Both the position numbers and the translations under genes were made by a program. Below the pieces are notes generated by a model. That model searched no databases. It saw only the letters and a list, made by a program, of their open reading frames with translations, and was not told the DNA's origin. Positions 32,870 through 51,322 of a DNA stretch of 64,000 nucleotides are shown piece by piece. This DNA comes from Escherichia coli. Lineage in GTDB: Bacteria; Pseudomonadota; Gammaproteobacteria; Enterobacterales; Enterobacteriaceae. The first letter of the stretch is position 1. Each line of letters starts with the position of its first letter. The stretch is from assembly GCF_003334305.1 (NCBI RefSeq), contig NZ_QOWS01000003.1. One strand, given 5' to 3'.

Positions 32870-32998
32870 GAGATATCCTCCAGTTTCCTGCCTGGAGTAT
32901 AGGCAACGGCTGTGCACTCTTCACCGCTAAATTCAGCAGATTGCGAGACGCCTTCCAAAGAGATTTAAGTGCCGGGCGACAGGCACCCGGCAAAGGGA

Positions 32999-34499: not shown

Positions 34500-35764
34500 A
34501 TGGCTCTGAGTGATGTGAAGGTCCGTTCGGCTAAGCCGGAAGCAAAAGCCTATAAACTTACTGACGGTGAAGGCATGGTTTTGTTGGTCACCCTAATGGC
34601 TCCAAATACTGGCGACTTCGTTATCGTTTTGGCGGTAAGGAGAAGATGCTGGCGCTGGGGAAATACCCTGAAGTCTCGCTGGTCGATGCCAGAGGTCGCC
34701 GGGATGAAGCCCGTAAGTTGTTAGCTAACGGCGTCGATCCTAGTGAGAACAAGAAAGCTGTTAAGGTAGAGCATGAGCAAGAGGTGATAACGTTTGAAGT
34801 GGTAGCCAGAGAGTGGCACGCCAGCAATCAGAAGTGGTCTGCATCGCATAGCGCTCGTGTATTGAAAAGCCTCGAAGATAATCTCTTTGCTGCTATCGGT
34901 AAGCGGAACATTGCTGATCTGAAGACTCGGGATCTGCTTGTCCCCATCAAAGCGGTGGAGTCGTCTGGGCGTCTCGAAGTCGCTGCTCGTTTGCAGCAGC
35001 ATACTACCGCGATTATACGCTTTGCTGTACACAGTGGATTAATCGACTACAACCCCGCTCAAGAGATTGCTGGTGCGGTTGCTACGGCGAAAAGACAGCA
35101 TCGTGCTGCTCTGGAACTTAACCGCATTCCTGAATTGCTTCAACGCATCTATCACTATTCTGGCAGGCCGTTAACCCGACTGGCGGTTGAACTCACATTG
35201 TTAGTTTTCATCCGTTCAAGCGAGTTGCGTTTTGCTCGCTGGTCAGAAGTTGATTTTGATACTGCCATGTGGACGATTCCGGGAGAACGTGAGCCACTGG
35301 AGGGAGTTAAGCATTCTCAGCGTGGTTCGAAGATGCGGACTCCACATCTTGTACCCTTATCTCGACAAGCTCTCACCATTCTGGAAAAAATCAAAAGCAT
35401 GAGTGGAAACCGTGAGCTGATCTTCGTTGGTGATCACGATCCGCGTAAGCCAATGAGTGAGAATACGCTTAACAAGGCCTTGCGAGTGATGGGCTATGAC
35501 ACGAAAACGGAAGTGTGTGGACATGGTTTCAGGACGATGGCGTGTAGTTCTTTGATTGAATCGGGATTGTGGTCGAGGGATGCAGTAGAGCGGCAGATGA
35601 GTCATCAGGAACGTAGCTCAGTACGGGCGGCTTATATCCATAAGGCGGAACATCTTGGGGAGCGAATGTTGATGCTGCAGTGGTGGGCTGATTATCTGGA
35701 TGCGAATAGAATGGCGGCTATCACTCCATTTGACTATGCAAAGATTAATAGTTCTTTTCGATAA
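34500..35764 (+). pseudogene. P4/CP4-57-type tyrosine integrase with -1 frameshift near 34589-34591
   Basis: The N-terminus MALSDVKVRSAKPEAKAYKLTDGEGMVLLV (frame of 34500) continues only in another frame as (H)PNGSKYWRLRYRFGGKEKMLALGKYPEVSLVDAR..., which joins the 372-aa ORF. Catalytic HGFRTMA and RAAYIHKAEH are present downstream. Confidence 0.8.
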
Positions 35765-35965: not shown

Positions 35966-37435
35966 TCAAATAACTCCAAGCTTTGCATACAATTCTTTTT
36001 TCTCTTTCATGCTGTTATCCAATGGTGCTACTCGCAATGCCGCTTTCAAATAAGCCGCAGCACCAGAGTAATCACGCATTTGCTCGCAAACTAAAATGAG
36101 TTGGCTTAACACATGGAACTTCATTGGAGTTGTTTGGTTTACTTTCTCCAATAGTACTCTTGCTTCAGAATATTTCGCTTCAAGGCCAAGGATAGATGAT
36201 TCTAAATACATGGTGGCCGCGTTTTCTGCTTCAGCTTGCTTTCGTTGCAACAGCCAGAAATTTGCTTGACTGATATTGCGTAACTGTAGGTTTGCCTTAA
36301 CTATCAACTCGAACAAAGCTGCTGGTTGAGTCAATTTACCCTCAAGTAAGATCGCTTTATTATCTTCTACAACTTTTTCAAAGTCGAATAAGCGATTGGC
36401 GCGATACAAGGCAATAAGTTGCTGATGTAAAGCTTGTAGATCTTTACTGCGGCTATACTCCTGCGACGCTAATTGAGCAGCTTTTTGGTAAGATTGATCG
36501 GACATTGCTTCAAGTACCGCACTTGACCAGTCCTGAGCAGGTTTAGTTTGAAAAACGGGAGCAATAGCACCAACTTTTAATTGCTTAGTGGCAGCAGAAT
36601 CAAATGCATGAATTAAGTCGGAAATAGTGGAAAAGCGATCCTCCGCTCGTTTTTGTAAACAAGTAAGAACCACTTGTTCCAGGTCCGTATGAATAGAGCT
36701 ATTAATCTCTGTCGGAAGCTTGAAAGGTGCGTGGCGCTGAACTTGTGCTGGCGTATCATGGGGCAGCTTTCCTGTCAGCAGCTGGTATAGCAAAACACCT
36801 AAGCTATAGATGTCGCCCAATAGTAGCTCTTCCAGGCTGCCTCTACGGCTATCGACGTTGGAGAACTCTGGGGCCGAATACAGCACAGTCCCGCCATTTT
36901 CACGGGTACGAACGTAAATTTCTTCTGGTAAAGCTGAGCTGCCAAAGTCCGTCAACTTCACCAGGTCCCGCTCTCCAACCAAAATGTTATGTGGCTTAAT
37001 ATCTCCATGAGATATTGGTACTGGTAATTCGGCCAAATAATGCACAGCACAGAGCACTTGACGATATATTCTGAACAACCGTTCATAGGTCTGGCCAAAA
37101 TTACGCTGCCTGTCATCGAGCTTTTGCGCCAGGGTTTGGCTGGGAAAATACTCCATTTCAATATAGAACCATTCATTATCTATACGGCCCATATCAAAAA
37201 TTTGCACAATATTTTCGTGCGGCTCGACGTTTAAAAGCTCTTTACCTTCGGCAAGCTGACGGTCTTCCCGAGTAATATCCTTAGGGATTTTTACTGCGAC
37301 AATTTTTCCATCTTTCAGGCGTTCCGCCCGCCATACCCAGCCATGGCTGCCATCACCAAGGCATTCAAGTAACAGGTATTTGTCACCAAGGCGTTTATTC
37401 GTCCCTGGCAAAAAATGTGCTGATTTTATATTCAC
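35966..37435 (-). CDS. Hanks-type Ser/Thr protein kinase with C-terminal helical (TPR-like) repeat domain; last gene of the nine-gene operon
   Basis: 489 aa with a GTG start overlapping the upstream stop (GTGA). Kinase subdomains are LGDGSHGWVW (Gly loop), VAVKIPK, HGDIKPHNILV, DFGSS, LYSAPE and DIYSLGVLLYQLLTG. The last roughly 200 aa are alpha-helical repeats. Confidence 0.85.
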   Translation of the reverse strand: MNIKSAHFLPGTNKRLGDKYLLLECLGDGSHGWVWRAERLKDGKIVAVKIPKDITREDRQLAEGKELLNVEPHENIVQIFDMGRIDNEWFYIEMEYFPSQTLAQKLDDRQRNFGQTYERLFRIYRQVLCAVHYLAELPVPISHGDIKPHNILVGERDLVKLTDFGSSALPEEIYVRTRENGGTVLYSAPEFSNVDSRRGSLEELLLGDIYSLGVLLYQLLTGKLPHDTPAQVQRHAPFKLPTEINSSIHTDLEQVVLTCLQKRAEDRFSTISDLIHAFDSAATKQLKVGAIAPVFQTKPAQDWSSAVLEAMSDQSYQKAAQLASQEYSRSKDLQALHQQLIALYRANRLFDFEKVVEDNKAILLEGKLTQPAALFELIVKANLQLRNISQANFWLLQRKQAEAENAATMYLESSILGLEAKYSEARVLLEKVNQTTPMKFHVLSQLILVCEQMRDYSGAAAYLKAALRVAPLDNSMKEKKELYAKLGVI

Positions 37436-37974
37436 ATCAACACCTCATAGTGAATTCTGTCCAAAACAATCATGTTCAGGTTTTTGATAAATAAAAAGCG
37501 ACTAAATACCACCTCAACATCAGGAGCGGCGATTACTTGGGTACCCGTGGACGAAGTAAAACCCATACGGCATATGTCTTTCAGTTTTTGAGTATCAGGT
37601 ACACCTACTAAGCCTTGGCTCCAGGCACTGAGGACCAGGGTTTTGGGGCAATGATTCCAGCGCTGTGCTGCTTCCAGTAAGTTTTTTAATTTTTCTTCCA
37701 GCTTTTGCTGCCCCTTCGCTGAACCATCAAAGCGTTCAAATTCGATTAAACACACAGGCGATGCAGAAGATTTATGAAACCAGCCCGAGTCAGAGCGAAT
37801 ATCAGCACCAAATGTCCCTGGAGCCGGGCATTCCACTACCGCCATAAATGACTGTTCATGCCCGAATGTATTCCAAACGCTACAGCCCAGGCTGTGGACC
37901 AATACATCCTGGTCCAATAGCTTACCGCTTGCTAAAAGTGGAAATGTCTCATTTACCCAGGCAACTTCAGGCAT
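37432..37974 (-). CDS. Hypothetical protein (about 180 aa); a possible nuclease-like fold is speculative
   Basis: The ATG at 37974 is preceded by AAGGTG, which overlaps the HerA-like stop (TAAGGTGCCTATG). The track GTG start at 38031 is less likely. The only hint of a PD-(D/E)xK-type site is ADIRSD...CLIEFERFDG...K. No motif was confidently recognised. Confidence 0.55.
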   Translation of the reverse strand: MPEVAWVNETFPLLASGKLLDQDVLVHSLGCSVWNTFGHEQSFMAVVECPAPGTFGADIRSDSGWFHKSSASPVCLIEFERFDGSAKGQQKLEEKLKNLLEAAQRWNHCPKTLVLSAWSQGLVGVPDTQKLKDICRMGFTSSTGTQVIAAPDVEVVFSRFLFIKNLNMIVLDRIHYEVLM

Positions 37975-37981
37975 AGGCACC

Positions 37982-39667
37982 TTAGCCACTGAAAGAGCCC
38001 CAAACACGCAGTACCTCTGGTGATTCACCACCGTGAATTAATGCCTTACTACCAACTTTAACAAGCAGTGGTGCAGGGATTGAACGACCACACACCAAAG
38101 CTTCACCGGTTGATAAACTCGGGAGTTCCTCCAGATCAGCTTTGCTCACCATATCTGATGCTTTAGCTATAAATCGTTGATCGTCAGGGTTCTTTAAGCG
38201 CATCGTAATTAGCGTATTGCACTGAGAGGTCACATCTGAATCTAATTTCGATGGACGCTGGCTCACAATGCCAAATCCAACGCCAAATTTACGACCTTCA
38301 CCAGCGATCTTTTTAATAATGCGGTGACTGACTGCGTTGCCGCCGGCCGGGGCAAAATTATGACCCTCTTCGTAAATGATAAAGCATGGGCGCAGCGGGT
38401 CCGTTTTGCTCGAGGCTGCTTTTAATATTTCACTAGATAACAGTGCACAAATGACTTGCTTAGCGGTATCACTCAAACCTTGTAAGTCAACAACGACTAA
38501 ACGCCCCTGTTGATTGCTCGGGCGACCCACCATTTTGTAAATATCAGTTGGCTCAGCCATTGTTGCGCTGTAAAAACTTTTAGCTTCATTAAGCACACGT
38601 GAAAGCTTCATCGAGGCGACGGCGGCACTACGGCCTGATAACGCCTTCGCCTCAGCTTCAGAAAGGTCGTCCCACTCTTTTAACTCTTCAATACCATCAC
38701 CTAATAAGAAGCGTAGGCGGTTAATATCTCGTGGCTCAGTCTTATCTGCAGAGCGCCAATAACGAATTGCAACATCGAGTACTCGTTGCTGCGGTTCCGT
38801 TAAGCCAGGTAATATTTCAGCAATATCGTCCATTTCAAAATGGTCAAACTGAAGCGCTAATGGCGTATTCTTACTGGCGTATTTATGTTTAAAAGATTCA
38901 TGCTGCGGCGAGTAAACCTGAATACCTGCACCGGCGGCTTGCAGCTTTTCAAAGGTCTGTTTTATCAGTGGCAGTGCTTCTTGATCACGCTTATCGTCAG
39001 TGGCTTCTAAGAAGCTTGAGAATTGCAGATTACCGCCAGCGAGGGCTTTACCGTATTCACCATGTGGGTCAAATACTACTACCGTACCGTTATTAACCGC
39101 AACTAAACGCTCAATAATGCGGCCAACTGTATAAGACTTACCTGAACCCGTCATTGCCAGAACAGCCAAATGCTCAGTGACCAACTTGTTCACGTCAATA
39201 AAAACAGGAACTGTATTCTCACCTTTGTCGTAGCCTACTAAGTTACCTAAGTGCAAACTGGAGTGTTCATTAAATTCGTAAAAATCACTCAAAAACTGAA
39301 AATCGACGGTTTCAACAGCGGTACCCGGGTTAAGCGGGCGACGTGGAATTTTGATTTGACGAGTAACAGGATCGCGGTAACCAACCAGCTCGACCTGAGC
39401 AAACATATTCTCACCAGTTACATTCGCACCGGGCAAAAGCTCAAGCTCGGTTACACCATCGCCAAAGCCGGCGTTATAGAGCATATTAGTACGGCTTATC
39501 TTGGTCACTCGCCCCAGTACGGCGACTTGCCCCTCATCTTTGCGTTCCTGGTGCATAATGCGTACAAACTCACCACGGCGTACTGAAAACGAGTCTTGTA
39601 CAACCATAGTTAACTGACTGGCATCACCAGTGTTACCGACTAATTTACCTAAAACTTTATAAGCCAT
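37982..39667 (-). CDS. HerA/FtsK-like (DUF87-type) P-loop ATPase
   Basis: 561 aa with an N-terminal barrel-like segment, Walker A LAMTGSGKSYTV and Walker B-like PCFIIYEEGHNFAP, the typical HerA arrangement. The start overlaps the upstream gene by 11 nt. Confidence 0.8.
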   Translation of the reverse strand: MAYKVLGKLVGNTGDASQLTMVVQDSFSVRRGEFVRIMHQERKDEGQVAVLGRVTKISRTNMLYNAGFGDGVTELELLPGANVTGENMFAQVELVGYRDPVTRQIKIPRRPLNPGTAVETVDFQFLSDFYEFNEHSSLHLGNLVGYDKGENTVPVFIDVNKLVTEHLAVLAMTGSGKSYTVGRIIERLVAVNNGTVVVFDPHGEYGKALAGGNLQFSSFLEATDDKRDQEALPLIKQTFEKLQAAGAGIQVYSPQHESFKHKYASKNTPLALQFDHFEMDDIAEILPGLTEPQQRVLDVAIRYWRSADKTEPRDINRLRFLLGDGIEELKEWDDLSEAEAKALSGRSAAVASMKLSRVLNEAKSFYSATMAEPTDIYKMVGRPSNQQGRLVVVDLQGLSDTAKQVICALLSSEILKAASSKTDPLRPCFIIYEEGHNFAPAGGNAVSHRIIKKIAGEGRKFGVGFGIVSQRPSKLDSDVTSQCNTLITMRLKNPDDQRFIAKASDMVSKADLEELPSLSTGEALVCGRSIPAPLLVKVGSKALIHGGESPEVLRVWGSFSG

Positions 39668-40814
39668 TATTCAATCCCTCATCGAGGCCTGCCAACCACC
39701 CTGCCTCAATATCATTATTCTTTAGTGCCTGGTGTAAACCCTGGCGATAAAACGTAGCAAATTTAGGTAAAATACCAAGCTGTTGATAACCAAGTAATTG
39801 TGGCAACGGCATTGCATTACCTTTGTTTTGCATATCCAGCACCATCAGGCGAGAGGCAACTAAATCGAGATCAGCACTTTTCCATTCTGGTTCGTCACCC
39901 GCTAATTGCACCATTTTTATCTGTCCACCTCGGGCACTACGGAAGTGAAAACCAATTAGACCTTGCTTAGCTTCAATATTGGGTTCAATGCGCTTTTCTT
40001 GTTCAGACAAACGAAATGCGATGGTGCGCGAATAGTTGCCTAAAATGCCATTGATAAATCGCAAATCTCCCACGCCAACCAAACTTTCATCCAGTCCTTC
40101 CAGATTTTGCATCAACTCTTTAGAAAACCCATCAGATGCTAAAATTTGTTTGCGTCCTTGTTCGGTACGTAAATCTTGTTTGGCGATACTTACAATGGCA
40201 CTAAAGCGCTCAGCCAAAATGCTCGCAAGTACTACACCATTTTGATTCCAGGGAAAAATTCTGGAGCGATGGTTTTGCCAAAAAGTTTCTATCACTTGTC
40301 TGGTTTTTTCGTACTCTTGTTTATGACGGACATTTCTCTCCAGCGGAGCCATATCCCGTGCTAAAAACAACGGCGTATCCAGCAAAATTAAATCGCCAGG
40401 CTCATAACCTAAAAGTTTTTTCTCAACTAACTGATAAGCCTGACGAATTTCAATTAAATCAAGCCGTTTACGCTGAGCTTCAAAATCAATATCATCCAGT
40501 TCTGATACCGAGTCGCTACCCACCGTGCTGACTTTATTGTCATCTATTAACAAATCTGTGCGCACTGCTGCACTGGCATAAATAAAACCACCCAATACCT
40601 TGTCTAAGCACGATTTAGTCGCAATACCGGCTACGCGTAAATTAACAATTGTGGGCTTGGGGACCGCTTTCACTAAGCCAGCATCACGGAATAGCGGCGC
40701 CACTTGCTCAATATCACGGACCTGTTTAAGCAAGCGTCCTGCACTTCCCGGTAAGCGAAGCTGGCTATCGATGGCGAGCGATTGCGCTAAATTCATCGTT
40801 TTGTTCTCATTCAT
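39657..40814 (-). CDS. Hypothetical protein (about 385 aa) in the nuclease-partner slot upstream of HerA
   Basis: The ATG at 40814 lies 2 nt after the upstream TAA. There is no clear catalytic motif. LILLDTPLFL faintly recalls the NurA hhhDGxL motif. The gene position matches NurA, DUF4297 or SIR2 partners in HerA systems. Confidence 0.5.
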   Translation of the reverse strand: MNENKTMNLAQSLAIDSQLRLPGSAGRLLKQVRDIEQVAPLFRDAGLVKAVPKPTIVNLRVAGIATKSCLDKVLGGFIYASAAVRTDLLIDDNKVSTVGSDSVSELDDIDFEAQRKRLDLIEIRQAYQLVEKKLLGYEPGDLILLDTPLFLARDMAPLERNVRHKQEYEKTRQVIETFWQNHRSRIFPWNQNGVVLASILAERFSAIVSIAKQDLRTEQGRKQILASDGFSKELMQNLEGLDESLVGVGDLRFINGILGNYSRTIAFRLSEQEKRIEPNIEAKQGLIGFHFRSARGGQIKMVQLAGDEPEWKSADLDLVASRLMVLDMQNKGNAMPLPQLLGYQQLGILPKFATFYRQGLHQALKNNDIEAGWLAGLDEGLNNGL

Positions 40815-40816
40815 GC

Positions 40817-41665
40817 TTATAGCGTTCCTGTGTGTAGCTGCTCGCCAAGTAATGGGGCATAAGCCCAATATTGCGAGGCTTGTAGGCATGTTTTACCGGT
40901 AGCTGTTATGCCCGCGTCGTCGATAAAATCGTGCTGCCGCAACATCTCACCCCGCTTGACAATATCAAGGCTATTAACATCAAACATCAGCTTAACCGCA
41001 TTATGCTCAGACAACGCTTGTAAGTTCATGCCACCGCCAGCGTAGAGTAATAGCAATACAACTAGATCGTGCTTATCTGGCGTGTAGTCAGTTGATGGCG
41101 CTTTAGGTTCGATTATTCGTTCAGCAATGCCTGCATGGTCCACAAACCAATTCAACCAGCTCACCAGGAGCTCACTATGATCGAGTAAAGTCAGCGACCA
41201 CAAAGGTAACGTGGTAAAGGCTAATAGCCCACTGTTGCTGTGTTTTCGTATGTAGCGGGTATGCACTACATCACCGGCCTGGTGCTGGTAGCGATCTGCG
41301 CTGCCAGTAAAGCCAGCAATAGCCTGGTCTGTTTCACTGGCTAGCAAAGCGGTTAGCCCCGGTTCCTGCCCCCTCAAGCTCGCTGGTACTAACTGCCAAT
41401 CCAGTGGATAGGGCAATTGCGCTAATAAGGTAAATTGTTCTGCTTTCAGGTTTATTACCAAAGCGGCACAACCTGCCTGCATAGCCCAGTGATACAGGTG
41501 CTGCATAGTATTAGCGTCAGTCAACTCTTCTGCTTGCACTATTAACAAACCGCTGGCTGGCGGCGAGCTAATCCAATCCTTCATTAAGGGGGTAGCCCCC
41601 GCAACAGTTTGCAAAAAACGGCCTTTACGATTACTGGCCAGTGCCGCAGATAAATAACGACTCAT
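40817..41665 (-). CDS. Hypothetical protein (about 282 aa)
   Basis: The ATG at 41665 is preceded by a GAGGTGA Shine-Dalgarno sequence that overlaps the TAG of the 1428-aa gene. No recognisable motif. Confidence 0.55.
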   Translation of the reverse strand: MSRYLSAALASNRKGRFLQTVAGATPLMKDWISSPPASGLLIVQAEELTDANTMQHLYHWAMQAGCAALVINLKAEQFTLLAQLPYPLDWQLVPASLRGQEPGLTALLASETDQAIAGFTGSADRYQHQAGDVVHTRYIRKHSNSGLLAFTTLPLWSLTLLDHSELLVSWLNWFVDHAGIAERIIEPKAPSTDYTPDKHDLVVLLLLYAGGGMNLQALSEHNAVKLMFDVNSLDIVKRGEMLRQHDFIDDAGITATGKTCLQASQYWAYAPLLGEQLHTGTL

Positions 41666-41675
41666 CGCGTCACCT

Positions 41676-44600
41676 CTACAAACCAGTGGCAAAGGTAAGG
41701 CGCATTTTTACAATGCCTTTGTCTACAAGTCCTTTCTGTTGCTCAGGTGTTAACACGGGTTCCTGATTTTGGCTCAAAGCCTTATAAATCGGTTGCCAAT
41801 CCGCCAGTGTTAAGCCTGTATCATTTAATATTTGCTCACCTTGACTCTGCCATTTGGCCTGGGTGCTTTCACACACCTGTTGAAGTTCTCTGACACCCAA
41901 ATTGCTCACATCCTCCAGAGTCAACGCTGCTGGTTCCGCTTGCTTTTGAGAAGCCAATAGCGGTTTTAATAACGGCAGCCAGCTGTTTACCTGTGCGATG
42001 GAGTTGCGTCTTACTTGGTTTAGACGCTCTTCAATTTTAAGTAGCTGGCCTTGAATCGGTGTAAGTTGACCGCGTGCCGGTTTTAAAAGCTCTTCTGGTA
42101 AATCCCGTAACGATGAAAACTGCCCATTGCGCAAACTGTTTTGCATACTTTGACGCTTGCTCTCTGCATCACTGGGGAGATCGGCAATAGCATCTTCAAT
42201 GAGCTGTAATTTCATTACCAGTTTTGGTAGCTCTGCAATGTCATCGGCGAACTGATACTCAGCCGTGGCGCTACTAAGCCATTCTTGCAGTTGTTGTGCA
42301 CGTAGTTTTTGCTCTGTGAGGTTATTAACCAGCTTACTAAATCGTTCTTTGCAGTTGCGGTAGCTGGACAAAATATGCCCCTGAATCTCCGCTATCGGCA
42401 ACTGTTGATCATTGTGCAGGTTTAAACCCACTTCTTGCGCTAAGGCTGAAAGCTTGTCATGCGCTCTACCTAAATCGAGTTTACGCAGGTAATGCAGTAA
42501 GGTATCGCTATCTGCTTGCTGCTCTTTTCGGCCAGTGGCACTGCTGGTATCGTCTTTTAACGCTCCATCTAAAATATGACCTATGGTGCGCAGCGTGTTG
42601 GTGTACAGACGTTTCGGAAAATTCGTCAGCGGGGCACACTCTGTTTCAACATCTATGATTAAATCAACGAGTCGGTTGTTGATACGCTCAGCGCTGCACT
42701 CAACAAACTCGGCAAATAAACAGGCCTGTTCAATCCGTTGATAAAGCGAGGTCGTTTTGTCTTCTAAGCTGAGAATATGGGCATCTTTTAGCATAGGCCT
42801 GGAACTATTAAGCGGTTTAACCTTTGCTACCAGCTCCAGCACTTCAGCGCGTTTGTGGATAAGCCCTGCCAATACTTTCGTGTCGTTGGCCTCGACCATA
42901 TCAGCCAATTGTTCTTCTTGCTGTTTGAGCACGTTAAATAGCGATTGTGCTTTTTCCAGCTGCTCTTTAGCTTCCACGGTGACGAAACCCAGCTTATTTT
43001 TACCCAGTGGCGCGAACATTTCATTAATGCGTGCATAACCATACACGCGGCTCATGACTTCCACATTGGCTGCATAGCTGCCCATATCGTTACCACGGAA
43101 CCAGTTTTGCGCTTCTCTAATGGCATTTTCTAAGCGGGAGCGCGGGTAGTGCTCCCAAATTGCCTGTTTTTCTGTTGGATTGGTTAAAGTGAGTAAGTTC
43201 AGCTCTCCACACCACCACATCCAGTCATTAAACACGCCTTTGGCGGTAACACTCGTTTCAGCCACATAGGCGAAATAAAACTGTTGCTTAAAGCCTTCGA
43301 ATTGCCACTTGTGCTTTTTATTAGGGTGAGCAATACGGGCTAAAAATAATGGGATCTGCGCCTGGCTTCGCTGCACATTATTAAGTTCAGTAAATAGCCC
43401 GGCATGTTCATCGGCAGTGTAACCTTTGGCAATATAGCTGCCCGGCACCTTAAGTTTATCCAACAAGCTGCTCAGCTCATTCACTGGCACGCCGTGTTGC
43501 TGCTGTAAATCGAGAATGCCATTTAACTCAGGGTGAGCAATGGCCAGCTGATACCAGCCTTTAAACAACAGGTCTCGGTCATTCGGTGATAATTTACCAT
43601 CTACCTTTAACGGCCAGGCAATTAAACCGCGCTGCTGCAAACGCTGGCGCCACTTGTGAATGGCATCCGTGGCAAAGGTTGTCAGGGCATGCAGCTTGTT
43701 TTTGAATTTCGCGGTAAAGCTGTCGGCAGTTAAATTCACGCCGTGCAACTGACATGCTGCCAAACTTAAGCCAATACGCTCTAACTGGTCTGCTTCGCTT
43801 GGGTTGACATAATGCAGCAGTATCGCATCACGCAACTCATTTCTTTCATCCAGTCGGCTGTATTGCTCCATGAGATGTGCAGAAGCAGTTAACGCTAATA
43901 CTGGCGTGCGACCATTTTGGTGGCTGTGGTTTGCCGCAAAGGTGTGAAGATTGTTCAGCTCAATTAGGTTGCTGACCCAGGCAAACAAGGCTTTACCTTC
44001 TGGGTGAAGCTTAAATCCATCCAGGGTAAGTAAACCACCCTGGCGGCCACGGGGCTCGGTTAAAATGGCCAAAGGTGCATCGTCGCTGCCCGCTTTATTA
44101 CTCAGCAAGTTTTCATCATAGGTCCAGTTGTTATCAAGTAATCTCACAAAGCCCGTTACACGGGCTAATGCCTTGATGAGCGGCTTCTGGCTACTTTGTT
44201 TGCTAAGTTCACTCATTGCCTGTTCATGAGCGTCGCCCATGGCGGGATCTTTAAAAATCAGTGAGTTTTGCTGGGCACTGCGATAGCGCAAATCCAGGCG
44301 CAGTAACATCGCCACACTGGGGCCAATATGCGTTGCTTCGCTGGCGTCCAGTTCGGTAGTTTCACCCACTAGCTTGTGCCATAAGGCATCGGCAGCGAAT
44401 TCAATCGCTGGGTGGTCATACAGCAAGCTGAGTAAGTATTTAAACTCACCTTTTGACAGAGGTAGTAATACCGCGCCTTTATCGCCGCTTGCGGCTTGTT
44501 CTTTAATTGAAAAAGTACGCAGGTTATCCAGCAAAGTATCTAAGTTCAGCGCTTGATCTACTGCAGGGTAGTACCATTCATCTTTATCGCGGCGGAATTT

Positions 44601-45962
44601 GGCTTGCTCCAGGGCTTGTCGGCACTGTAGGCGGTCAATGCTCAGTTTGCGGTAATGAGCGGCTATGGGTTCCAGATCTTCGTTTTTCAGCGCCAGCAAT
44701 TCTGTGGCATAGCCCATTTCAGCTAAGCGCACGGGTAATTGGCCGTAGAGCAAACTACGACATTCGGTCAATAGTGCCTGGTCGCGAGTTTGAATGCCTT
44801 CTATCGCGCCTTTATCCAGCACATGCCTGGCTACGCGGCCAGAGCCTGCCAGCACAGCTTCAAATAAATCGCCCACATCCTTGATACTGCGGCCTGCTTG
44901 TTGGTATTGGCTCAGCACTGCATCCACATTAGCCATGACCACGTTAAACCAACCGAAGTTGGCACCACTCATGGCGTATGCAGCTTCCACTAAACCAGCA
45001 GGGTAATTAAAACCCAGCTTGCCGTCTTTTAAGAGGCTTGCCACATAGTCTGATACATCGGCAAAGGCATTATGCTCAAGTTCCACTAACTCAAAGCGGC
45101 GTGCGACCGATTGAATTTCGCGCAATTGCTGGCCAAGCAGTGGTGAACACAGCGCTACATAGCGCAACCATGGAAGTTTACGGCGAGGGTCTTCCTCTTT
45201 AATTGCTTTACCAATCAGGCGAATGGCCTGGCCATCGAGGCGTTTATTTTGTTCATCTTCCAGGCCAAAGGTGGCGGCTTCTGCAACGGTTTCCAGCTCA
45301 TCCAGCACCACCAACATATACTGCACGCCAAAGCTCTTTAATACTTTATAGGCGGCTTGCACCAAACTGACTACCAGCGTTTGGTCAGTATAGAGGTCTT
45401 CTTCGCTGTGGTTGGCGTTCAGCTGTAAGGCATCTGCTAACAGTTCAGATTTAAAGCCAAATGGCATTAAGCGTTCATAGGCTTGTTTGGCAATTTCACT
45501 TTGAATCGATCCATCAAAGGTTTGGGTGGCCAGTGGTAATAGCGCCTGATATAAACCAAAAGCAAACCAGTTATCCGAGTTTTGATAATCTGATGCCACT
45601 TGCGAGTAGCGAATGTAGAGCGCCAGGTATTTGTCTTGCGTGTCGCGATTAAACAGCTGCTTATCGTGCAGTTGGCCTTGTTCGTCGCGGACAAACCAGC
45701 CCCTTGAACAGTCGTTAATTTGTGCAACCAATTCATGGCCTAAACGTGATTTACCCCGACCCCATTCGGCTTCGACGGCAAACACATGGGCAAAGCGATC
45801 ATCGTCGTGATCCACCGTATGCAAAAAGGTTTGAAAGCGTTTAAAAAAGCGGCTCTGGCCCACTAACGGGTCGCGAGGTGGATAATCTGATACGCCCGTC
45901 GCCGCCCAGCGATGTTGTTTTGCCAGGCTATCAACCATCTGTTCGTTTAATTCAAAACTCAT
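41676..45962 (-). CDS. Giant (1428 aa) P-loop NTPase with long helical C-terminal region
   Basis: Walker A-like EAEWGRGKSRLGHE sits near residue 65 and Walker B-like YMLVVLDELE near residue 215. The remainder is helix-rich with no motif I can name. Its ATG overlaps the upstream TGA (ATGA). Confidence 0.7.
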   Translation of the reverse strand: MSFELNEQMVDSLAKQHRWAATGVSDYPPRDPLVGQSRFFKRFQTFLHTVDHDDDRFAHVFAVEAEWGRGKSRLGHELVAQINDCSRGWFVRDEQGQLHDKQLFNRDTQDKYLALYIRYSQVASDYQNSDNWFAFGLYQALLPLATQTFDGSIQSEIAKQAYERLMPFGFKSELLADALQLNANHSEEDLYTDQTLVVSLVQAAYKVLKSFGVQYMLVVLDELETVAEAATFGLEDEQNKRLDGQAIRLIGKAIKEEDPRRKLPWLRYVALCSPLLGQQLREIQSVARRFELVELEHNAFADVSDYVASLLKDGKLGFNYPAGLVEAAYAMSGANFGWFNVVMANVDAVLSQYQQAGRSIKDVGDLFEAVLAGSGRVARHVLDKGAIEGIQTRDQALLTECRSLLYGQLPVRLAEMGYATELLALKNEDLEPIAAHYRKLSIDRLQCRQALEQAKFRRDKDEWYYPAVDQALNLDTLLDNLRTFSIKEQAASGDKGAVLLPLSKGEFKYLLSLLYDHPAIEFAADALWHKLVGETTELDASEATHIGPSVAMLLRLDLRYRSAQQNSLIFKDPAMGDAHEQAMSELSKQSSQKPLIKALARVTGFVRLLDNNWTYDENLLSNKAGSDDAPLAILTEPRGRQGGLLTLDGFKLHPEGKALFAWVSNLIELNNLHTFAANHSHQNGRTPVLALTASAHLMEQYSRLDERNELRDAILLHYVNPSEADQLERIGLSLAACQLHGVNLTADSFTAKFKNKLHALTTFATDAIHKWRQRLQQRGLIAWPLKVDGKLSPNDRDLLFKGWYQLAIAHPELNGILDLQQQHGVPVNELSSLLDKLKVPGSYIAKGYTADEHAGLFTELNNVQRSQAQIPLFLARIAHPNKKHKWQFEGFKQQFYFAYVAETSVTAKGVFNDWMWWCGELNLLTLTNPTEKQAIWEHYPRSRLENAIREAQNWFRGNDMGSYAANVEVMSRVYGYARINEMFAPLGKNKLGFVTVEAKEQLEKAQSLFNVLKQQEEQLADMVEANDTKVLAGLIHKRAEVLELVAKVKPLNSSRPMLKDAHILSLEDKTTSLYQRIEQACLFAEFVECSAERINNRLVDLIIDVETECAPLTNFPKRLYTNTLRTIGHILDGALKDDTSSATGRKEQQADSDTLLHYLRKLDLGRAHDKLSALAQEVGLNLHNDQQLPIAEIQGHILSSYRNCKERFSKLVNNLTEQKLRAQQLQEWLSSATAEYQFADDIAELPKLVMKLQLIEDAIADLPSDAESKRQSMQNSLRNGQFSSLRDLPEELLKPARGQLTPIQGQLLKIEERLNQVRRNSIAQVNSWLPLLKPLLASQKQAEPAALTLEDVSNLGVRELQQVCESTQAKWQSQGEQILNDTGLTLADWQPIYKALSQNQEPVLTPEQQKGLVDKGIVKMRLTFATGL

Positions 45963-47260
45963 AACGACGATCCTTGAAGGTTTATTCTATTGGCGGCGCG
46001 TTTTTTATTGGCATAGCAGTTTTGCGCCAGTTGCTTAATGGTCCGTTGTAACGTTTGGCTTTTGTAGCCAAATAGTGGTGCTAACGGCAGGCTATAACAG
46101 GCATCGCTGAAGCTTGTATGAATTCGATATTGGCCGGCCTCTCCACGACCCGCCTCGGTAAATTGCCAGATTTTTTTTGCCAACAATTCGGCAATGAATG
46201 AGCTCAGGACGCGGTTTAGGCGGTTGATGCTTTCCGTGTTCGCATCGAGTGCCGGGTAGAGGGGTATATTGAGCTCACCGAGCAGAAGCACAAGAAACTC
46301 GGCCAAACTACCCAGACTCACCTCATCACCTTCAATGCCCTGTACCGCCACATTTATTTGACCGGGGGCAAAGGCATTTTGCCCGGCAGGTAAGGTGAGC
46401 AACAAACCGCCACGTTGCTCGGCAGCCCAGGCATCTTGCACAAAGATAATTAGACTGAGTAAAAATAACCAGGGCTGTTGGGCGAATAGCTCGGTAAGCG
46501 GCATGTTGTCATGACCCGAGCGGGACACCAATAACCAATCGGCATTGGGTTTAAGGTTATGTTCATCAAGCAAGGTATTAGGGAGTGCTAACAACCGCCC
46601 ACTACACCAGTTATTTGTCAGTTGTTTTGCGGTGACATCCACCGCTTGTATAGGTGCCGGTGGTTCATTTTGTTCGCTCACGGTAAACAAGGTATAGCTG
46701 GTGCGCAAAATACGACATAGCGCGGGAATGGCAGCATTGTCGTTTAGGCTATGACCGAGCAAATCGCGTTCGGTTTGTGCCAGAGGGCCGGCAATGATTT
46801 GCGGCGTGGTGGCAGTGCTTTCCAGCTGGGCTAAGACCCATTCACTGGCATTGCCCAGTTGCTGAATGAGTTTAACCAATACCATTGTGTCACTCATCGT
46901 GCCTGCTTCCTGGCAGCGAGCGGCGGCTAAATTGATCCAATGTTGGCGAACATCTGGGTTTAAGCCCAACAACGCTAATTGCCATTCACCTGACTGGCTT
47001 AAATCGTTAAAGGCATCAAGCAATGGTGCAGTGAGGCTAAAGGCGCTAACGATATCCGTTTCAGCGTCGTTCTTTTTCGGCTGTATTATTGGTTGTAGCA
47101 GTGACCTAAGGGCAGGCACAGCCGCCAATAACAATGCTGCTTTGTTGGCGTTCAAACCACCTTGTTGCCAAAGCTGCAGGCAGAGGTTAAGTGCCGCTTC
47201 GCTATTTACGGGGTCGTTATATTGCCTGGTTGTACTGCTGTCCGTGCCCCTTGTCTCCAT
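45959..47260 (-). CDS. Hypothetical protein (433 aa)
   Basis: The ORF starts 2 nt after the S-subunit TAA and ends in an ATGA overlap with the giant NTPase gene. No recognisable motif. Confidence 0.6.
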   Translation of the reverse strand: METRGTDSSTTRQYNDPVNSEAALNLCLQLWQQGGLNANKAALLLAAVPALRSLLQPIIQPKKNDAETDIVSAFSLTAPLLDAFNDLSQSGEWQLALLGLNPDVRQHWINLAAARCQEAGTMSDTMVLVKLIQQLGNASEWVLAQLESTATTPQIIAGPLAQTERDLLGHSLNDNAAIPALCRILRTSYTLFTVSEQNEPPAPIQAVDVTAKQLTNNWCSGRLLALPNTLLDEHNLKPNADWLLVSRSGHDNMPLTELFAQQPWLFLLSLIIFVQDAWAAEQRGGLLLTLPAGQNAFAPGQINVAVQGIEGDEVSLGSLAEFLVLLLGELNIPLYPALDANTESINRLNRVLSSFIAELLAKKIWQFTEAGRGEAGQYRIHTSFSDACYSLPLAPLFGYKSQTLQRTIKQLAQNCYANKKRAANRINLQGSSL

Positions 47261-47262
47261 CT

Positions 47263-48738
47263 TTACTCTTCAGCCTCCGCTTGCGCCGCCTCTTCCAGCA
47301 AACTGTATAACTCATCCACATCGCTAAATAGCGGTGTGGCACCTTCAATGGCATAACCCTCAGCGCTCAGTTTGCTTAAAATCGCTTGATCAAAGCTGCT
47401 GTCGCCATCTTCCAGGGCTTGTTGGGCCTGGATTAGTTGTTGCTCAGTCAGTTGGCCTTCGATTAATGACTCAACTAGAGTTTTGGCAGATGCTGTTAAC
47501 TTTTTTGCATATGCTGCCGTAGTAACGGCTAGTCTCAGCTTACTTCCTATTTCTCTATTCTTCGCTATGTCAATCGGAATCAGAATATTTAACAGGTTTT
47601 CTGAAGTCACTTTTGGTACAACGCTGCCAGTAGTCACACCTTTCCAACACGGAAAGTGTTTATCCAGGAACCTACAAATAGACTCAATATCATATTCATC
47701 TTTTACCTTTAAAACCCAAACATGGTTGTTTGCCCAAAACTTTCCATCAGCTACATTTGCACAGCCAATAGAGCCATCTTGCGCAATAATCAGATATTTA
47801 CCGTTGAAATTGAATTCGGTATGAGTATCTATTGGACCTGATGCGCCATAGTAAAAATATGGTCCGGGTACTCTGTCTTCCGATTTAATAGGGTCGCCAC
47901 ATTTGCATTTACTAATGAAATTAGATAGTTTTGATGAATTCCTAAAGGTCATTTGACTATCGGCCGCACGTGCAAACTCAGGAGCTAAAGACACTGCTGA
48001 TAATACCTGTTGTTTCATTCTTCTAGGTTTCAATGTTAATGAATCAACAAGGTTGAAGTGAAATAAATCTTTAATTTTTCTATCAGCCATTCCTTCAAGT
48101 CGTTTCGCCCAAGCGCGTAACTGCTCGGCTTGGCGAACTTTATCCCCGATGTATTTTTGGGCTAGAGGTAAAACTTTAGGAACCGCTAGCGAGCGGACAC
48201 TTGGGAAGTCAATTGCAGGGCGAGTTGCGCCATATGCTTCCTTCCAGATCGCTACTTGTCCGGTTTTGCTATTCAAATATGCCACCAAGAAATAGGCGTC
48301 AACTTTTTTGGGATCGGGCTTGAATCTGACTGAGTGCTGACTAATGTTGGCCGGTAGATGTTTAGCTGACACAACAGCCGATTTACCAAATTTTGCACCA
48401 GTAATCGTAAGTAAAACGTCGCCATCCACTAATCGGCTGCGCTTTAATTTTTCATCATCTTCATCGTTAATAAAAACAGCTTCTTCAGCTTGCAAGAACA
48501 TTTCTTCAACTTCAGAAGTGCGATAAAACTTAACACGGCCTTTTTCTAAATAATTTGCTCCTAAAGGTGTTGCGCCACTAGCCACCCCGCGCTTTGAATC
48601 AATTACCGCTTCTAGGGGCAAAGCACCTAGGTTGTCTTTTATCTTATTAATTTGTCTTTCAAATCGCGGTTGATAGTGCCAAGGATCAATCCGCCTTTCA
48701 GACAATTGTTCGGGTGTTCTTTTAAAAATAGTTGCCAT
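47263..48738 (-). CDS. Type I-like restriction-modification specificity (HsdS-like) subunit with two target-recognition domains
   Basis: About 491 aa. TRD1 carries RIDPWHY..., GDVLLTITGAKFGKSAVV and NISQHSVRF. A conserved helical spacer (QKYIGDKVRQAEQLRAWAKRLE) follows, then a second TRD (YYGASGPI...IIAQDGSIG...NNHVWVLK) and a C-terminal helix plus acidic tail. The ATG overlaps the methyltransferase TGA (TGATG). Confidence 0.8.
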   Translation of the reverse strand: MATIFKRTPEQLSERRIDPWHYQPRFERQINKIKDNLGALPLEAVIDSKRGVASGATPLGANYLEKGRVKFYRTSEVEEMFLQAEEAVFINDEDDEKLKRSRLVDGDVLLTITGAKFGKSAVVSAKHLPANISQHSVRFKPDPKKVDAYFLVAYLNSKTGQVAIWKEAYGATRPAIDFPSVRSLAVPKVLPLAQKYIGDKVRQAEQLRAWAKRLEGMADRKIKDLFHFNLVDSLTLKPRRMKQQVLSAVSLAPEFARAADSQMTFRNSSKLSNFISKCKCGDPIKSEDRVPGPYFYYGASGPIDTHTEFNFNGKYLIIAQDGSIGCANVADGKFWANNHVWVLKVKDEYDIESICRFLDKHFPCWKGVTTGSVVPKVTSENLLNILIPIDIAKNREIGSKLRLAVTTAAYAKKLTASAKTLVESLIEGQLTEQQLIQAQQALEDGDSSFDQAILSKLSAEGYAIEGATPLFSDVDELYSLLEEAAQAEAEE

Positions 48739-50885
48739 CACTCACCCCGCTTATAAGCCGATACAATCTTATCCAGATCGTTTGCGACACCGGCGTTATA
48801 GTCTTCGATATTGTTTTTCACCACATAACCCAATGTTTCAGCCACTGCCATAAACACGTCGGTTTGTGGCTCGGGCAAAAATTGCTCTGGCTGGTTGGGG
48901 TTAGCATGGCGTTTTTGTAAATACAAAATCGAGGTTTTGGCCCCCGTACCGGAGAGTTTAAAGCAGTCGCTCGGCAATGAAATTACTGCTTTTACAATAG
49001 CTTTACCGCCAACAAACTCGCCGGTTTTTTCGTCTTTTTTCCCCATAATGTACTCACGGACATAACGGTCGCCGGAGTTACATAAAATACCATCAGGCAG
49101 CACTATTAACAGGCGGCCACCGGGTTTAAGCAGTTGCAGGCAGCGGTCGATAAAAAGTACTGCTGGGTCAATAGTGGCACCTACCGGTTGCCAGTTGCCC
49201 TTGCTATCGGGCTTGCTGCCCAGCGCGAGCCCTGCGGTTGTAGGCTGCAGGCTGTAAAACGGCTTTTTATCAGTCCCGCCCGTTCTGCGCAAATCGGTAC
49301 GGTAGCCCGCCCATTTAGGCTCGCCGTTTTCATCCAGCTCTAAATCACCGATATCCTGCCACTTCATTTTCACGTGGTCATACCAGGCGTTGTAGCTATC
49401 AACGACTTTTTTGGTCGGACGAAAACCACCGAGCACTTGCTCCATATTGGCTTCGTAATTGGCTTTTGAGTTTTGACCATTTTTGCCTTTATCAAATTTA
49501 GGCGTACCGAACGGCGGGTTGGTGCAAATCAGGTCAAAGCTATTCGGCTTCAGAGCGTTAGTAGTGAGTGAGTTGTCGGTATAAAAAATCTGCGCTTTGG
49601 GGGCACCTTGCAATGCCATATTCACGCGGGCCAGCATTACCATGCGTGGTGCAGCATCGGCACCGGTAAATGCACAGTCGCGTAATTTTTGTTTCAATGA
49701 TTCTTTTTTATCGTCGGCCAGCACCAGCTTAAAATCGATCCATTTATCAATCTGGCTTAACGCCACCGAGCCAAAACCAAAGGAGCCACAGGTGGGGTCG
49801 CAGAAACGAAAATCGCCATTGGCTAAGCGCGATCGCATTTCATCGTCATCGTCGATGTCGTGCATAGCAATTTCTAGCATGGCCTGTTTTACTGGGTTTG
49901 GTGTTAAATAAACGCCAAGGCCACCTTTGGATTCAAAGTTAGCGCGTAGGAATACATCAAACACTCTGCCTAGTAAATCTCCTGACACATCAGCCAACGT
50001 GCCGTGTTCTTTCGCGATTTTACCGTCGTTGGTTTTTACCGGACCCAGGTTTTGTATTGCTTCCAGCAAATCCTGATAGTTTTTCGCAACAGACAGTCGC
50101 AGGTGTGTTTCTTTACTAAAGATGGGGTTACGTGAGCCATCATCTGAGATCACAACGTAGTTTTCGTGGCTTTTAAATTCCTCAAAGGCGGCTTTGATTT
50201 GGGCAACGGCTTTATCGCCGTGGCTCTCCACATATTGCCAATCAAAGACATCACGAAAACGCAGGGTATTTCCCTCATCATCTTTAAAGGTAAGGTCTTC
50301 ATCGTGATGCAGGCGGAAAGTTTCTAAAAACAGAAGCTTAGCTACTTCTTCAATAATGTCGTTCTTGTCGTTTACCTTGTCTTTGGTAACGCGATAAACA
50401 TTTTCATGGAAGGCATCAAATCGCTGCATTAAGCGTGTATAAACACGCATCGACCAGCGAAAGGTTGGATCACGCTCCATGCGATCAAAGCTACGTAATT
50501 CTTCCAGACCAGGCAGGGTATCTGCACCGTGGGTACCGTCAGATCCATCGGCACCGAACAAGGCCAAAATACGTTGGTTCAAGCCATCGTCCACAACGGC
50601 ATATACTGGCCAGTCACCTTCGATATCACTTAACAGCTGATAGGCTAAATCATCAAACTTTGCAGTGTCAGCGGCGTATTCCCAATGGCCTTCTGTCAGC
50701 GCAATCAACATGACTGGTGGCGTTAAGTTGCCTTCAACCAGGCCTTGAATGAGACCAGCCTTGGCGAATTCATGCTCGGGTAATTCGACCAATGGCTGAG
50801 TAAACTCGGAGTGCTGTTTGACCAGTTTATTGAACAGTGCTTCTAGCTGCTGTTGCGGGTCTTGTTTTTTTGCTTCTTTTGCCAT
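48738..50885 (-). CDS. N6-adenine DNA methyltransferase (gamma class, HsdM-like) with N-terminal extension of about 330 aa
   Basis: 715 aa with motif I FCDPTCGSFGFG, motif IV LICTNPPFG, and an HsdM-like segment DLLGRVFDVFLR...GVYLTPNPV upstream. Confidence 0.85.
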   Translation of the reverse strand: MAKEAKKQDPQQQLEALFNKLVKQHSEFTQPLVELPEHEFAKAGLIQGLVEGNLTPPVMLIALTEGHWEYAADTAKFDDLAYQLLSDIEGDWPVYAVVDDGLNQRILALFGADGSDGTHGADTLPGLEELRSFDRMERDPTFRWSMRVYTRLMQRFDAFHENVYRVTKDKVNDKNDIIEEVAKLLFLETFRLHHDEDLTFKDDEGNTLRFRDVFDWQYVESHGDKAVAQIKAAFEEFKSHENYVVISDDGSRNPIFSKETHLRLSVAKNYQDLLEAIQNLGPVKTNDGKIAKEHGTLADVSGDLLGRVFDVFLRANFESKGGLGVYLTPNPVKQAMLEIAMHDIDDDDEMRSRLANGDFRFCDPTCGSFGFGSVALSQIDKWIDFKLVLADDKKESLKQKLRDCAFTGADAAPRMVMLARVNMALQGAPKAQIFYTDNSLTTNALKPNSFDLICTNPPFGTPKFDKGKNGQNSKANYEANMEQVLGGFRPTKKVVDSYNAWYDHVKMKWQDIGDLELDENGEPKWAGYRTDLRRTGGTDKKPFYSLQPTTAGLALGSKPDSKGNWQPVGATIDPAVLFIDRCLQLLKPGGRLLIVLPDGILCNSGDRYVREYIMGKKDEKTGEFVGGKAIVKAVISLPSDCFKLSGTGAKTSILYLQKRHANPNQPEQFLPEPQTDVFMAVAETLGYVVKNNIEDYNAGVANDLDKIVSAYKRGE

Positions 50886-50935: not shown

Positions 50936-51322
50936 CTAATTTATCAGTACCAGCAAGGGGCCTTTAATCTCTATCTGCGCGTGCTTCTGTGCCAGTTTGC
51001 GTATCTGCTGTTCACTGGTCGTAATACCAGCAGGGAGCTTTTTCAGTACTTGTGCAAGGGGCATGCGCCCACCAGCTTGATGCAACAATGATACCAAATG
51101 TGCCGCGATATCAGGTATAACCTGGTACGTTGCCGTTGTGGGCCCTTTTAGATGATTACTTTGAGGCAATGAGGCAAGCCATAGCGAAACTTGAGACTGG
51201 CTAAAGCCAAGTGTTTGCCAGAGGGTTTGGTTCTCATTAAATACAACGGCGGCGCTTCTGGGAGTTGCTGTTTGCTGAGTTATTAGTTGTTCCAGGCTTT
51301 GTCGCTGGTATTCATGGGTCAT
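50936..51322 (-). CDS. Hypothetical 128-aa protein translationally coupled to McrC
   Basis: Its ATG overlaps the McrC TGA (ATGA). No motif was recognised. It ends 50 nt upstream of the methyltransferase ATG. Confidence 0.55.
   Translation of the reverse strand: MTHEYQRQSLEQLITQQTATPRSAAVVFNENQTLWQTLGFSQSQVSLWLASLPQSNHLKGPTTATYQVIPDIAAHLVSLLHQAGGRMPLAQVLKKLPAGITTSEQQIRKLAQKHAQIEIKGPLLVLIN

Follow-up and report, generated by a model that had tools for sequence, protein, structure and literature searches.

We analysed a 64,000-nucleotide stretch of Escherichia coli DNA (contig NZ_QOWS01000003.1 of assembly GCF_003334305.1; hereafter, the window), in which nine co-directional minus-strand genes led by an N6-adenine DNA methyltransferase occupy positions 35966-50885. 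On balance, we read this locus as an E. coli member of the "MADS-like" family described in the preprint on the methylation-associated defence system (MADS): a methylation-based defence operon with a ten-gene core and a variable upstream gene, in which a HerA–NurA pair would stand in place of HsdR. All nine open reading frames (ORFs) were found in the sequence and match those that RefSeq annotates in an E. coli locus of identical sequence; E. coli strain A7 matches the 14.9-kb query at 100% identity. The initial annotation had called the operon nine-gene and undescribed. Neither label held: an overlooked gene, u128, brings the conserved core to ten, and the gene order matches that of the 11-gene MADS-like system of the MADS preprint (10.1101/2023.03.30.534895), with homologous loci in Pseudomonas aeruginosa. 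The core genes, in gene order, are as follows.

50936-51322, minus strand: u128, 128 amino acids (aa), tenth core gene, 50 nt from the methyltransferase start
48738-50885, minus strand: HsdM-family N6-adenine DNA methyltransferase, 715 aa (Pfam N6_Mtase PF02384, E=5.8e-22)
47263-48738, minus strand: Type-I-like S subunit, 491 aa, two target recognition domains (TRDs) (Pfam Methylase_S PF01420, two stretches)
45959-47260, minus strand: u433, 433 aa, fast-evolving (position conserved in 50 loci)
41676-45962, minus strand: giant ATPase, 1428 aa, N-terminal KAP-like P-loop NTPase
40817-41665, minus strand: u282, 282 aa, fast-evolving (position conserved in 49 loci)
39657-40814, minus strand: predicted NurA-fold nuclease, 385 aa, from fold comparison; the gene overlaps the HerA gene by 11 nt
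37982-39667, minus strand: full-length HerA hexameric translocase ATPase, 561 aa (DUF87 PF01935, E=1.2e-44; HAS-barrel PF09378, E=8.8e-7)
37432-37974, minus strand: u180, 180 aa, candidate PD-(D/E)xK-type nuclease, from its motif
35966-37435, minus strand: Hanks-type Ser/Thr kinase, 489 aa (Pfam Pkinase, E=2.1e-34; the GTG start overlaps the u180 stop)

The domains originally assigned to the operon were all recovered, namely N6_Mtase with its NPPF motif, a two-stretch Methylase_S, HerA, a Hanks kinase and a P-loop in the 1428-aa protein. None of the nine proteins matched an HsdR-like or SF2 helicase domain in Pfam, PADLOC or NCBIfam, in keeping with the proposed absence of HsdR, and no PglZ, BrxC or BrxL was found among them in the PADLOC and Pfam matches. 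Of the four proteins that had been thought to lack a recognizable motif, one is predicted to have a NurA fold and another contains a nuclease-like motif. The eight junctions between the nine genes, all on the minus strand, read exactly as had been quoted:

48736-48740, methyltransferase/S: TGATG (gap -1 nt)
47260-47265, S/u433: TAA-N2-ATG (gap +2 nt)
45959-45962, u433/giant ATPase: ATGA (gap -4 nt)
41665-41678, giant ATPase/u282: TAGAGGTGA… (gap +10 nt)
40814-40819, u282/385-aa protein: TAA-N2-ATG (gap +2 nt)
39657-39667, 385-aa protein/HerA: 11-nt overlap ATGGCTTATAA (gap -11 nt)
37972-37984, HerA/u180: TAAGGTGCCTATG (gap +7 nt)
37432-37435, u180/kinase: GTGA (gap -4 nt)

The proposal of a single translationally coupled, methyltransferase-led multi-enzyme unit is borne out by conservation of the order across species. 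A scan with one genome per species yielded 51 loci, in which the order was read by tblastn with the window proteins. The ten-gene order was intact in about 45 of them, the remainder being cut by contig ends, and it persisted down to 39-50% protein identity. An order shared by about 45 genomes from different species cannot be put down to chance. The hosts are Gamma- and Betaproteobacteria, Desulfobacterota, Fibrobacter and Blackallbacteria. Desulfonema limicola and Pseudomonas veronii carry the same nine genes in the same order plus a 132-133-aa ORF just upstream of the methyltransferase gene, which is homologous to window u128 (29-42% identity); altogether, 42 fetched loci have a u128 homologue as the ORF directly upstream of the methyltransferase gene. 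Two loci in metagenome-assembled genomes (MAGs) that are assigned to distant phyla, one on a contig of a Candidatus Sumerlaeota MAG (L006) and one in a Terriglobales MAG (L054), are 74-86% identical to the gammaproteobacterial version, which could reflect recent horizontal transfer or a binning contaminant.

Conservation differed between the components. Across loci, identity to the window protein was 74-100% for HerA, 49-98% for the 385-aa protein, 47-97% for the methyltransferase, 44-96% for the kinase, 39-98% for the giant ATPase, 40-97% for u180, 28-94% for u433, 26-92% for u282 and 23-96% for u128, which makes HerA the most conserved protein of the system and HerA and the 385-aa protein the two most conserved; the S subunit is a mosaic across loci. 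A distant relative, at the edge of what u180 matching can detect (E=5.9e-5), keeps the order of a 344-aa, a 1339-aa, a 282-aa and a 383-aa protein followed by HerA, a u180-like protein and a TPR-containing kinase. Three distant u180 contexts were inspected; in each, the u180 gene overlaps the gene on either side, and the one long contig shows the same operon. Homologues of the giant ATPase form at least 467 clusters at 90% identity, and all those with a source name are labelled hypothetical or uncharacterized. A tblastn search of the giant protein against plasmids gave no match, which suggests that members of the family reside on chromosomes or islands. With HerA as the query, only distant HerAs came back, among them SIR2-HerA and an archaeal HerA whose gene has a NurA gene nearby.

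The methyltransferase and S subunit make up a Type-I-like pair. The PADLOC model MTase_I (PDLC03023) matches the methyltransferase end to end at 1577 bits; the protein has the AdoMet motif DPTCGSFGFG (aa 363-372) and NPPF (aa 456-459), together with an approximately 300-aa N-terminal extension and an insertion after NPPF. The S subunit matches PADLOC Specificity_I at E=7.7e-164. The whole system is also present in E. coli W (ATCC 9637), where McrBC and the HNH enzyme again accompany it. All of its proteins are at least 98.7% identical to those of the window save S (36%) and u433 (94%), and in its S subunit both TRDs are replaced while the C-terminus is conserved. At least 80% of the window S allele was found in 36 complete E. 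coli genomes, whereas at least 80% of the 15-kb query was present in 207 of 5426 (some match in 268); many complete genomes share one TRD or just the conserved parts of S. Judged from sequence comparison, such TRD shuffling on an otherwise frozen background is a hallmark of an active Type-I-like recognition module. We also observed that u433 is the sole non-S protein to differ appreciably between the window and E. coli W (L065, 5982-7268), its neighbours being at least 99.6% identical. Identity drops to 75% over residues 1-40 of u433 and to 80% near residues 120-160, and the adjoining S C-terminus is identical. This divergence may result from diversifying selection or from co-variation with S.

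The genes further downstream encode a HerA and its predicted partner. HerA contains a Walker A motif (GSGKS, aa 174-178); its best NCBIfam model is the archaeal helicase_HerA (E=6e-59, below the equivalog cut-off), and in PADLOC it matches HerA at E=1.2e-56 and mad8 at E=6.6e-26. The adjoining 385-aa protein is modelled with a NurA (RNase-H-like) fold, which suggests that the two form a HerA–NurA pair; it has many invariant Asp, Glu and His residues. The giant ATPase contains Walker A GRGKS (aa 68-72) and Walker B LVVLDE (aa 217-222), followed by a large α/β-plus-helical body and a C-terminal region of helical-bundle or coiled-coil type. KAP (PF07693) was the top match in 11 of 12 homologues of the giant, with a best E value of 2.4e-4.

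The protein u180 has no Pfam or PDB match and belongs to a family with 67 cluster representatives among 1.84 billion proteins, most full-length ones being about 190-215 aa long. In 31 representatives at 22-44% identity, P50, D62, W65, E78, E80, R81 and K95 are invariant, and E48 and R60 are nearly so. The E…D…ExE…K spacing probably represents a PD-(D/E)xK-type active site, and u180 is thus a probable nuclease; BamHI uses D-ExE.

The kinase, always the last gene, has all Hanks motifs (GDGSHG 27-32, VAVK 46-49, HGDIKPHN 143-150, DFG 163 and APE 188), with a non-RD HGD catalytic loop. Its C-terminal domain is helical and TPR-like, and faint TPR matches were seen in one distant homologue. The best PADLOC kinase model was mad6 (1.2e-45). 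The remaining proteins resisted assignment: u128, u433, u282, the 385-aa protein and u180 had nothing significant in Pfam, NCBIfam, PADLOC or PHROGs, and profile hidden Markov models of u433, u282, u180, the 385-aa protein and the giant gave noise only (E>0.1) against PDB sequences, for example a haemagglutinin coiled coil and the RNA polymerase α C-terminal domain. By position, u128 is likely to be the equivalent of madl2 of the MADS-like system, and it is probably a small DNA-binding or adaptor protein.

The gene preceding u128 varies between loci, being an HTH_17 protein, a protein of about 500 aa, an HTH_31 protein or, in the window, McrBC. The HTH_17 protein (MerR/excisionase-like, 60-89 aa) is absent from the window and in some loci is translationally coupled to the u128 homologue (L004, 4453-4719; L008, 4339-4521; L011, 4435-4623; L023, 3345-3554); it is probably a regulator equivalent to madl1. 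In 13 loci of one subclade (L028-L031, L033-L036, L039, L041, L043, L044 and L050; for example, L030, 3096-4601), the gene just upstream of u128, often overlapping it by 4 nt, encodes a conserved protein of some 480-540 aa that matches nothing in Pfam; it is a possible eleventh component restricted to that subclade. Cargo was found between S and the u433 homologue in two loci: a Fic/DOC protein with two ORFs of no assigned function (L036, 5999-8760), and IS66 with a YhcG/DUF1016 PD-(D/E)xK nuclease (L025, 2422-8851). These insertions resemble the insertion hotspots of Type I restriction-modification (R-M) systems.

We propose the following model for the system. The methyltransferase and the two-TRD S subunit would form a Type-I-like recognition complex that places N6-methyladenine (m6A) on a bipartite host site, and the same module would recognize unmethylated sites on incoming DNA. 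The effector would be the HerA hexameric translocase with its NurA-fold nuclease, degrading unmarked DNA in the place of the HsdR motor-nuclease; we infer this function from the HerA–NurA pairs of archaea and Deinococcus and from TdpAB. The giant KAP-like ATPase, with u433 and u282, may couple site recognition to the loading or activation of HerA–NurA, and u180, through D…ExE…K, could supply a second nuclease. The Hanks kinase with its TPR-like tail may regulate the system or act as its back-up, as in Pgl, PglW or MAD6, and u128, like the small HTH_17 protein of other species, would be a likely regulator.

Several observations weigh against this model. The NurA fold of the 385-aa protein was detected by fold comparison only, in a model of moderate confidence (predicted local distance difference test score (pLDDT) 77.6); sequence profiles detected no NurA, and an hhalign comparison of its profile with annotated archaeal NurA was negative (probability 0.1). 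The window giant scored 11.9-14 bits against PF07693, under the gathering cut-off of 20. Residues 1-300 of the giant, its most conserved part and the one that holds Walker A and B, have the worst pLDDT in the AlphaFold2 model (32-60) and are drawn as helices rather than as a P-loop α/β fold, likely because the alignment is too invariant to carry covariation; the N-terminal ATPase folded with a pLDDT below 50. The nuclease call for u180 comes from its motif, with neither profile nor fold support, and no role could be derived for u433, u282 or u128. Promoter-like sites were fewer than in shuffled controls, and promoter and terminator scans gave no obvious operon boundary or standout signal. The equivalence with madl1-11 was set by the published description of gene order and by P. 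aeruginosa homologues, not by the authors' own sequences. Finally, none of the papers that we read reports that a MADS-like system methylates DNA, restricts it or protects against phage. A literature search with the RefSeq protein accessions returned nothing, Johnson et al. 2022 do not mention these components, and no E. coli W methylome was found in the literature.

Other explanations of the locus must be considered. It could be a chance composite of an orphan or Type-I-derived methyltransferase–S pair, a HerA–NurA module and a stand-alone PD-T4-6-like abortive-infection kinase. The component families do act alone elsewhere, PD-T4-6 kinase models match the kinase at 1e-39, generic HerA outscores mad8 and the MTase_I and Specificity_I models match strongly; cargo can be inserted between S and u433, and the gene upstream of u128 is variable (HTH_17, the ~500-aa protein or McrBC). 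Such a composite is nonetheless quite improbable: the co-occurrence of all ten genes in one order, in some 45 species and at identities as low as 39-50%, extends to a very distant relative, and, contig ends excepted, no fetched locus had the HerA–NurA–u180–kinase block without the methyltransferase gene. The genes overlap or lie no more than 10 nt apart, and the overlap of u180 with both neighbours in three distant contexts, with the long contig showing the same operon, points the same way. It is more improbable still that the locus is not a defence system at all, and we give very little credence to a module that travels on integrative islands and serves DNA repair or the upkeep of mobile elements, for example HerA–NurA resection combined with epigenetic regulation by an orphan methyltransferase. 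HerA–NurA is classically a double-strand-break resection machine, the closest plasmid HerA matches are archaeal and include one whose gene has NurA and SMC-domain genes nearby, and the locus is always beside integrases. However, presence in only 207 of 5426 complete E. coli genomes, together with swapped TRDs in S, indicates a diversifying, R-M-like specificity rather than housekeeping repair; the neighbours are restriction systems (McrBC, SBD-HNH and Mrr), and the related MADS is experimentally a defence system (10.1101/2023.03.30.534895).

A further alternative accepts defence and assigns the main role to the kinase, which would drive abortive infection or growth arrest as in Pgl, by phosphorylating targets in the host or the phage once the methyltransferase–S complex and the giant had sensed unmethylated DNA; HerA–NurA would then sense or process DNA ends instead of destroying phage DNA. 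No catalytic motif is missing from the kinase, which also has a TPR-like domain for interactions and is well conserved (44-96% identity) in its terminal position; its best defence-library match is mad6, with weaker ones to PglW and MkoA, and deletion of the kinase abolishes protection in MADS (10.1101/2023.03.30.534895). We consider this explanation unlikely. A NurA-fold protein, a nuclease-like u180 and a DNA translocase exceed the needs of a sensor, and the roughly 100-fold restriction that the related MADS imposes on transformation with unmethylated plasmids points to direct targeting of DNA (10.1101/2023.03.30.534895). A bolder proposal is that the operon represents a distinct class of methylation-dependent restriction, mechanistically separate from canonical MADS, BREX and Type I, in which the methyltransferase–S complex works, in place of HsdR, with a HerA–NurA pair licensed by the KAP-like giant and gated by the kinase, the fast-evolving u433 and u282 being adaptors or decoys for phage inhibitors. 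We hold this tentatively, its chances falling somewhat short of even.

The operon lies in an island inserted at tRNA-Leu(CAA) of the E. coli chromosome. The order is the frameshifted integrase, the operon, McrC, McrB and SBD-HNH, followed by the core genes nanS, nanM, nanC and fim, and the GC fraction falls across the island from about 0.54 to about 0.46. The defence-island setting is seen in the McrBC pair and the phosphorothioate-dependent HNH endonuclease beside the operon. The flanking features are:

34214-34298, plus strand: tRNA-Leu(CAA), island edge (ARAGORN)
about 34500-35764, plus strand: tyrosine integrase, frameshifted, island edge (Pfam Phage_integrase, RefSeq annotation)
51319-52662, minus strand: McrC, Type IV restriction pair with McrB (Pfam McrBC, E=1.9e-96)
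52655-54730, minus strand: McrB (Pfam AAA_5, E=8.7e-15)
54900-55829: SBD-HNH, phosphorothioate-dependent (phosphorothioated DNA-binding) restriction endonuclease, flanking the island

McrB and McrC lie directly upstream of u128 in the same direction and are translationally coupled to it (the McrC stop and u128 ATG overlap as ATGA), and the 13 co-directional genes, McrBC included, may be in one transcript. Among the loci, McrBC is upstream only in those from Enterobacterales (L005, L009, L010 and L016) and in E. coli, including E. coli W; it is a lineage-specific neighbour outside the conserved core. Two SBD-HNH genes lie at this tRNA-Leu hotspot in E. coli W (L064, 21159-22034), together with a second island that holds complete HsdRMS, a WYL protein, AbiEii and CbtA/YeeU. 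In the core genome just outside the island, yjgR (31367-32917) encodes a "HerA-like C-terminal domain" protein that is unrelated to the island HerA; automated scans could confuse the two.

The locus is not categorically new, its architecture having already been named MADS-like. What our analysis adds is the ten-gene core and the breadth of its conservation, the NurA assignment and the HerA–NurA effector that it suggests, the KAP-like call for the giant, the motif-level nuclease call for u180, the diversification of S alleles in E. coli and the presence of the system in E. coli W. If correct, the model would reveal another design for a restriction enzyme centred on a Type-I-style methylase–specificity pair, with HsdR replaced by a HerA–NurA machine, otherwise known from DNA-end resection, as the motor-nuclease. 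The MADS-like family, which is widespread in Proteobacteria and beyond, would moreover be resolved into components for the first time: a core of ten genes, of which two encode putative nucleases, two encode ATPases and one encodes a kinase. Standard genetics would allow direct tests of methylation, restriction and kinase signalling in E. coli W, a common laboratory strain whose complete copy of the system has another S allele. Five "hypothetical proteins" in several thousand E. coli and related isolates could be given provisional names.

Among known systems, Type I R-M (HsdRMS) shares with the window an HsdM-family γ-class m6A methyltransferase, a two-TRD HsdS and the swapping of TRDs between strains. 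The window methyltransferase is about 200 aa longer than a typical HsdM, and eight other conserved genes accompany the pair. A complete Type I system was rejected: the operon contains no ResIII, Helicase_C or HSDR_N domain, and none was seen in the homologous loci. BREX type 2 and Pgl share the combination of a methyltransferase, a large P-loop ATPase and a Ser/Thr kinase, and the kinase weakly matches PglW (9.8e-20). PglZ, BrxC/PglY (DUF499), BrxA, BrxB and BrxL are all missing from the operon, and in place of PglX there is an HsdM-type methyltransferase whose S subunit is a protein of its own. The components of MANTIS/Gao_RL and of the BREX-related capture systems are different (four genes in the former; PglZ, DUF6079, STAND, GNAT and TGT in the latter), and the HerA/FtsK capture systems of Rakesh et al. 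2024 differ in architecture from the window operon.

Compared with the HerA–NurA pairs of archaea and Deinococcus and with TdpAB, the window has the HerA side in its HAS-barrel and FtsK/HerA ATPase core, with the pair placed inside a ten-gene methyltransferase/S operon rather than with Mre11-Rad50 or a phosphorothioate-synthesis gene. TdpA is HerA-like; we take this, and the further details of the TdpAB mechanism, as background. The tdpABC cluster and its phosphorothioate-sensing TdpAB restriction pair have been described (PMC12914056). Given the fold match and that description, TdpAB offers, by analogy, a precedent for a modification-dependent system whose restriction arm includes a NurA-fold subunit.

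Canonical MADS (mad1-mad8, P. aeruginosa SMC4386) methylates the bipartite site TCAGNNNNTCC as m6A and restricts unmethylated phage and plasmid DNA; epigenetic escape phages arise, and deletion of the S gene alone is lethal (10.1101/2023.03.30.534895). Like the window operon, it encodes an N6-methyltransferase with an S subunit along with a Ser/Thr kinase and a HerA-like ATPase, and the PADLOC mad2, mad5, mad6 and mad8 models match the window methyltransferase, S, kinase and HerA. The tentative mention of MADS in the initial annotation pointed in the right direction, in that the MADS-like order matches, but an assignment to canonical MADS fails. The NCBIfam models MAD2 (NF047738), MAD5 (NF047740) and MAD6 (NF047741) scored 111.6, 90 and 116.9 bits against cut-offs of 720, 400 and 460, or 16-25% of the cut-offs, and PADLOC mad2 and mad5 were much weaker than MTase_I and Specificity_I. 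There was no match in the nine proteins to MAD7 (DptG-like; PADLOC E≤0.001, NCBIfam E≤0.01), which is mandatory in the authors' MacSyFinder model (10.1101/2023.03.30.534895), and none in PADLOC, NCBIfam or Pfam to MAD3 (AbiEii/ATPase/Toprim) or MAD4 (DUF4276). For HerA, eight generic HerA PADLOC models outscored mad8, and NCBIfam MAD8 was not among the matches listed. Canonical MADS in turn lacks the NurA-fold protein, the 1428-aa KAP-like ATPase, the 180-aa putative nuclease and three further proteins of the window that have no family match.

The closest counterpart is the MADS-like system, which we compared through the text of the preprint (bioRxiv 10.1101/2023.03.30.534895, Maestri et al.; since published in Cell Host Microbe, 2024). 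There, madl1-madl11 is an 11-gene system found in 10 of 444 P. aeruginosa islands, with madl1 a WYL/HTH regulator, madl3 an N6-methylase, madl4 S, madl6 an ATPase, madl9 a helicase/translocase with similarity to DptH/HerA and madl11 a kinase (10.1101/2023.03.30.534895). The order is thus regulator, x, N6-methylase, S, x, ATPase, x, x, HerA-type helicase/translocase, x, kinase, and four of the proteins are hypothetical, with no prediction (10.1101/2023.03.30.534895). The preprint makes no NurA, KAP or nuclease assignment and reports no functional test of the system (10.1101/2023.03.30.534895). In the window, no WYL or HTH regulator lies upstream; McrB–McrC occupies that place, and u128 is the candidate madl2. 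From the methyltransferase onwards, the window order (methyltransferase, S, u433, giant, u282, 385-aa protein, HerA, u180, kinase) is the published order, gene for gene. The window proteins are about 27-87% identical, depending on the gene, to those of Pseudomonas loci, which include a homologous locus in a P. aeruginosa assembly (L059). We filed the locus as an E. coli MADS-like system because the positions of the annotated components coincide and because homologous loci occur in P. aeruginosa. The published MADS-like islands also hold a Type IV enzyme and an integrase (10.1101/2023.03.30.534895), and the homologues that we found in Pseudomonas islands adjoin the Type IV enzyme Mrr and an integrase, which fits that description.

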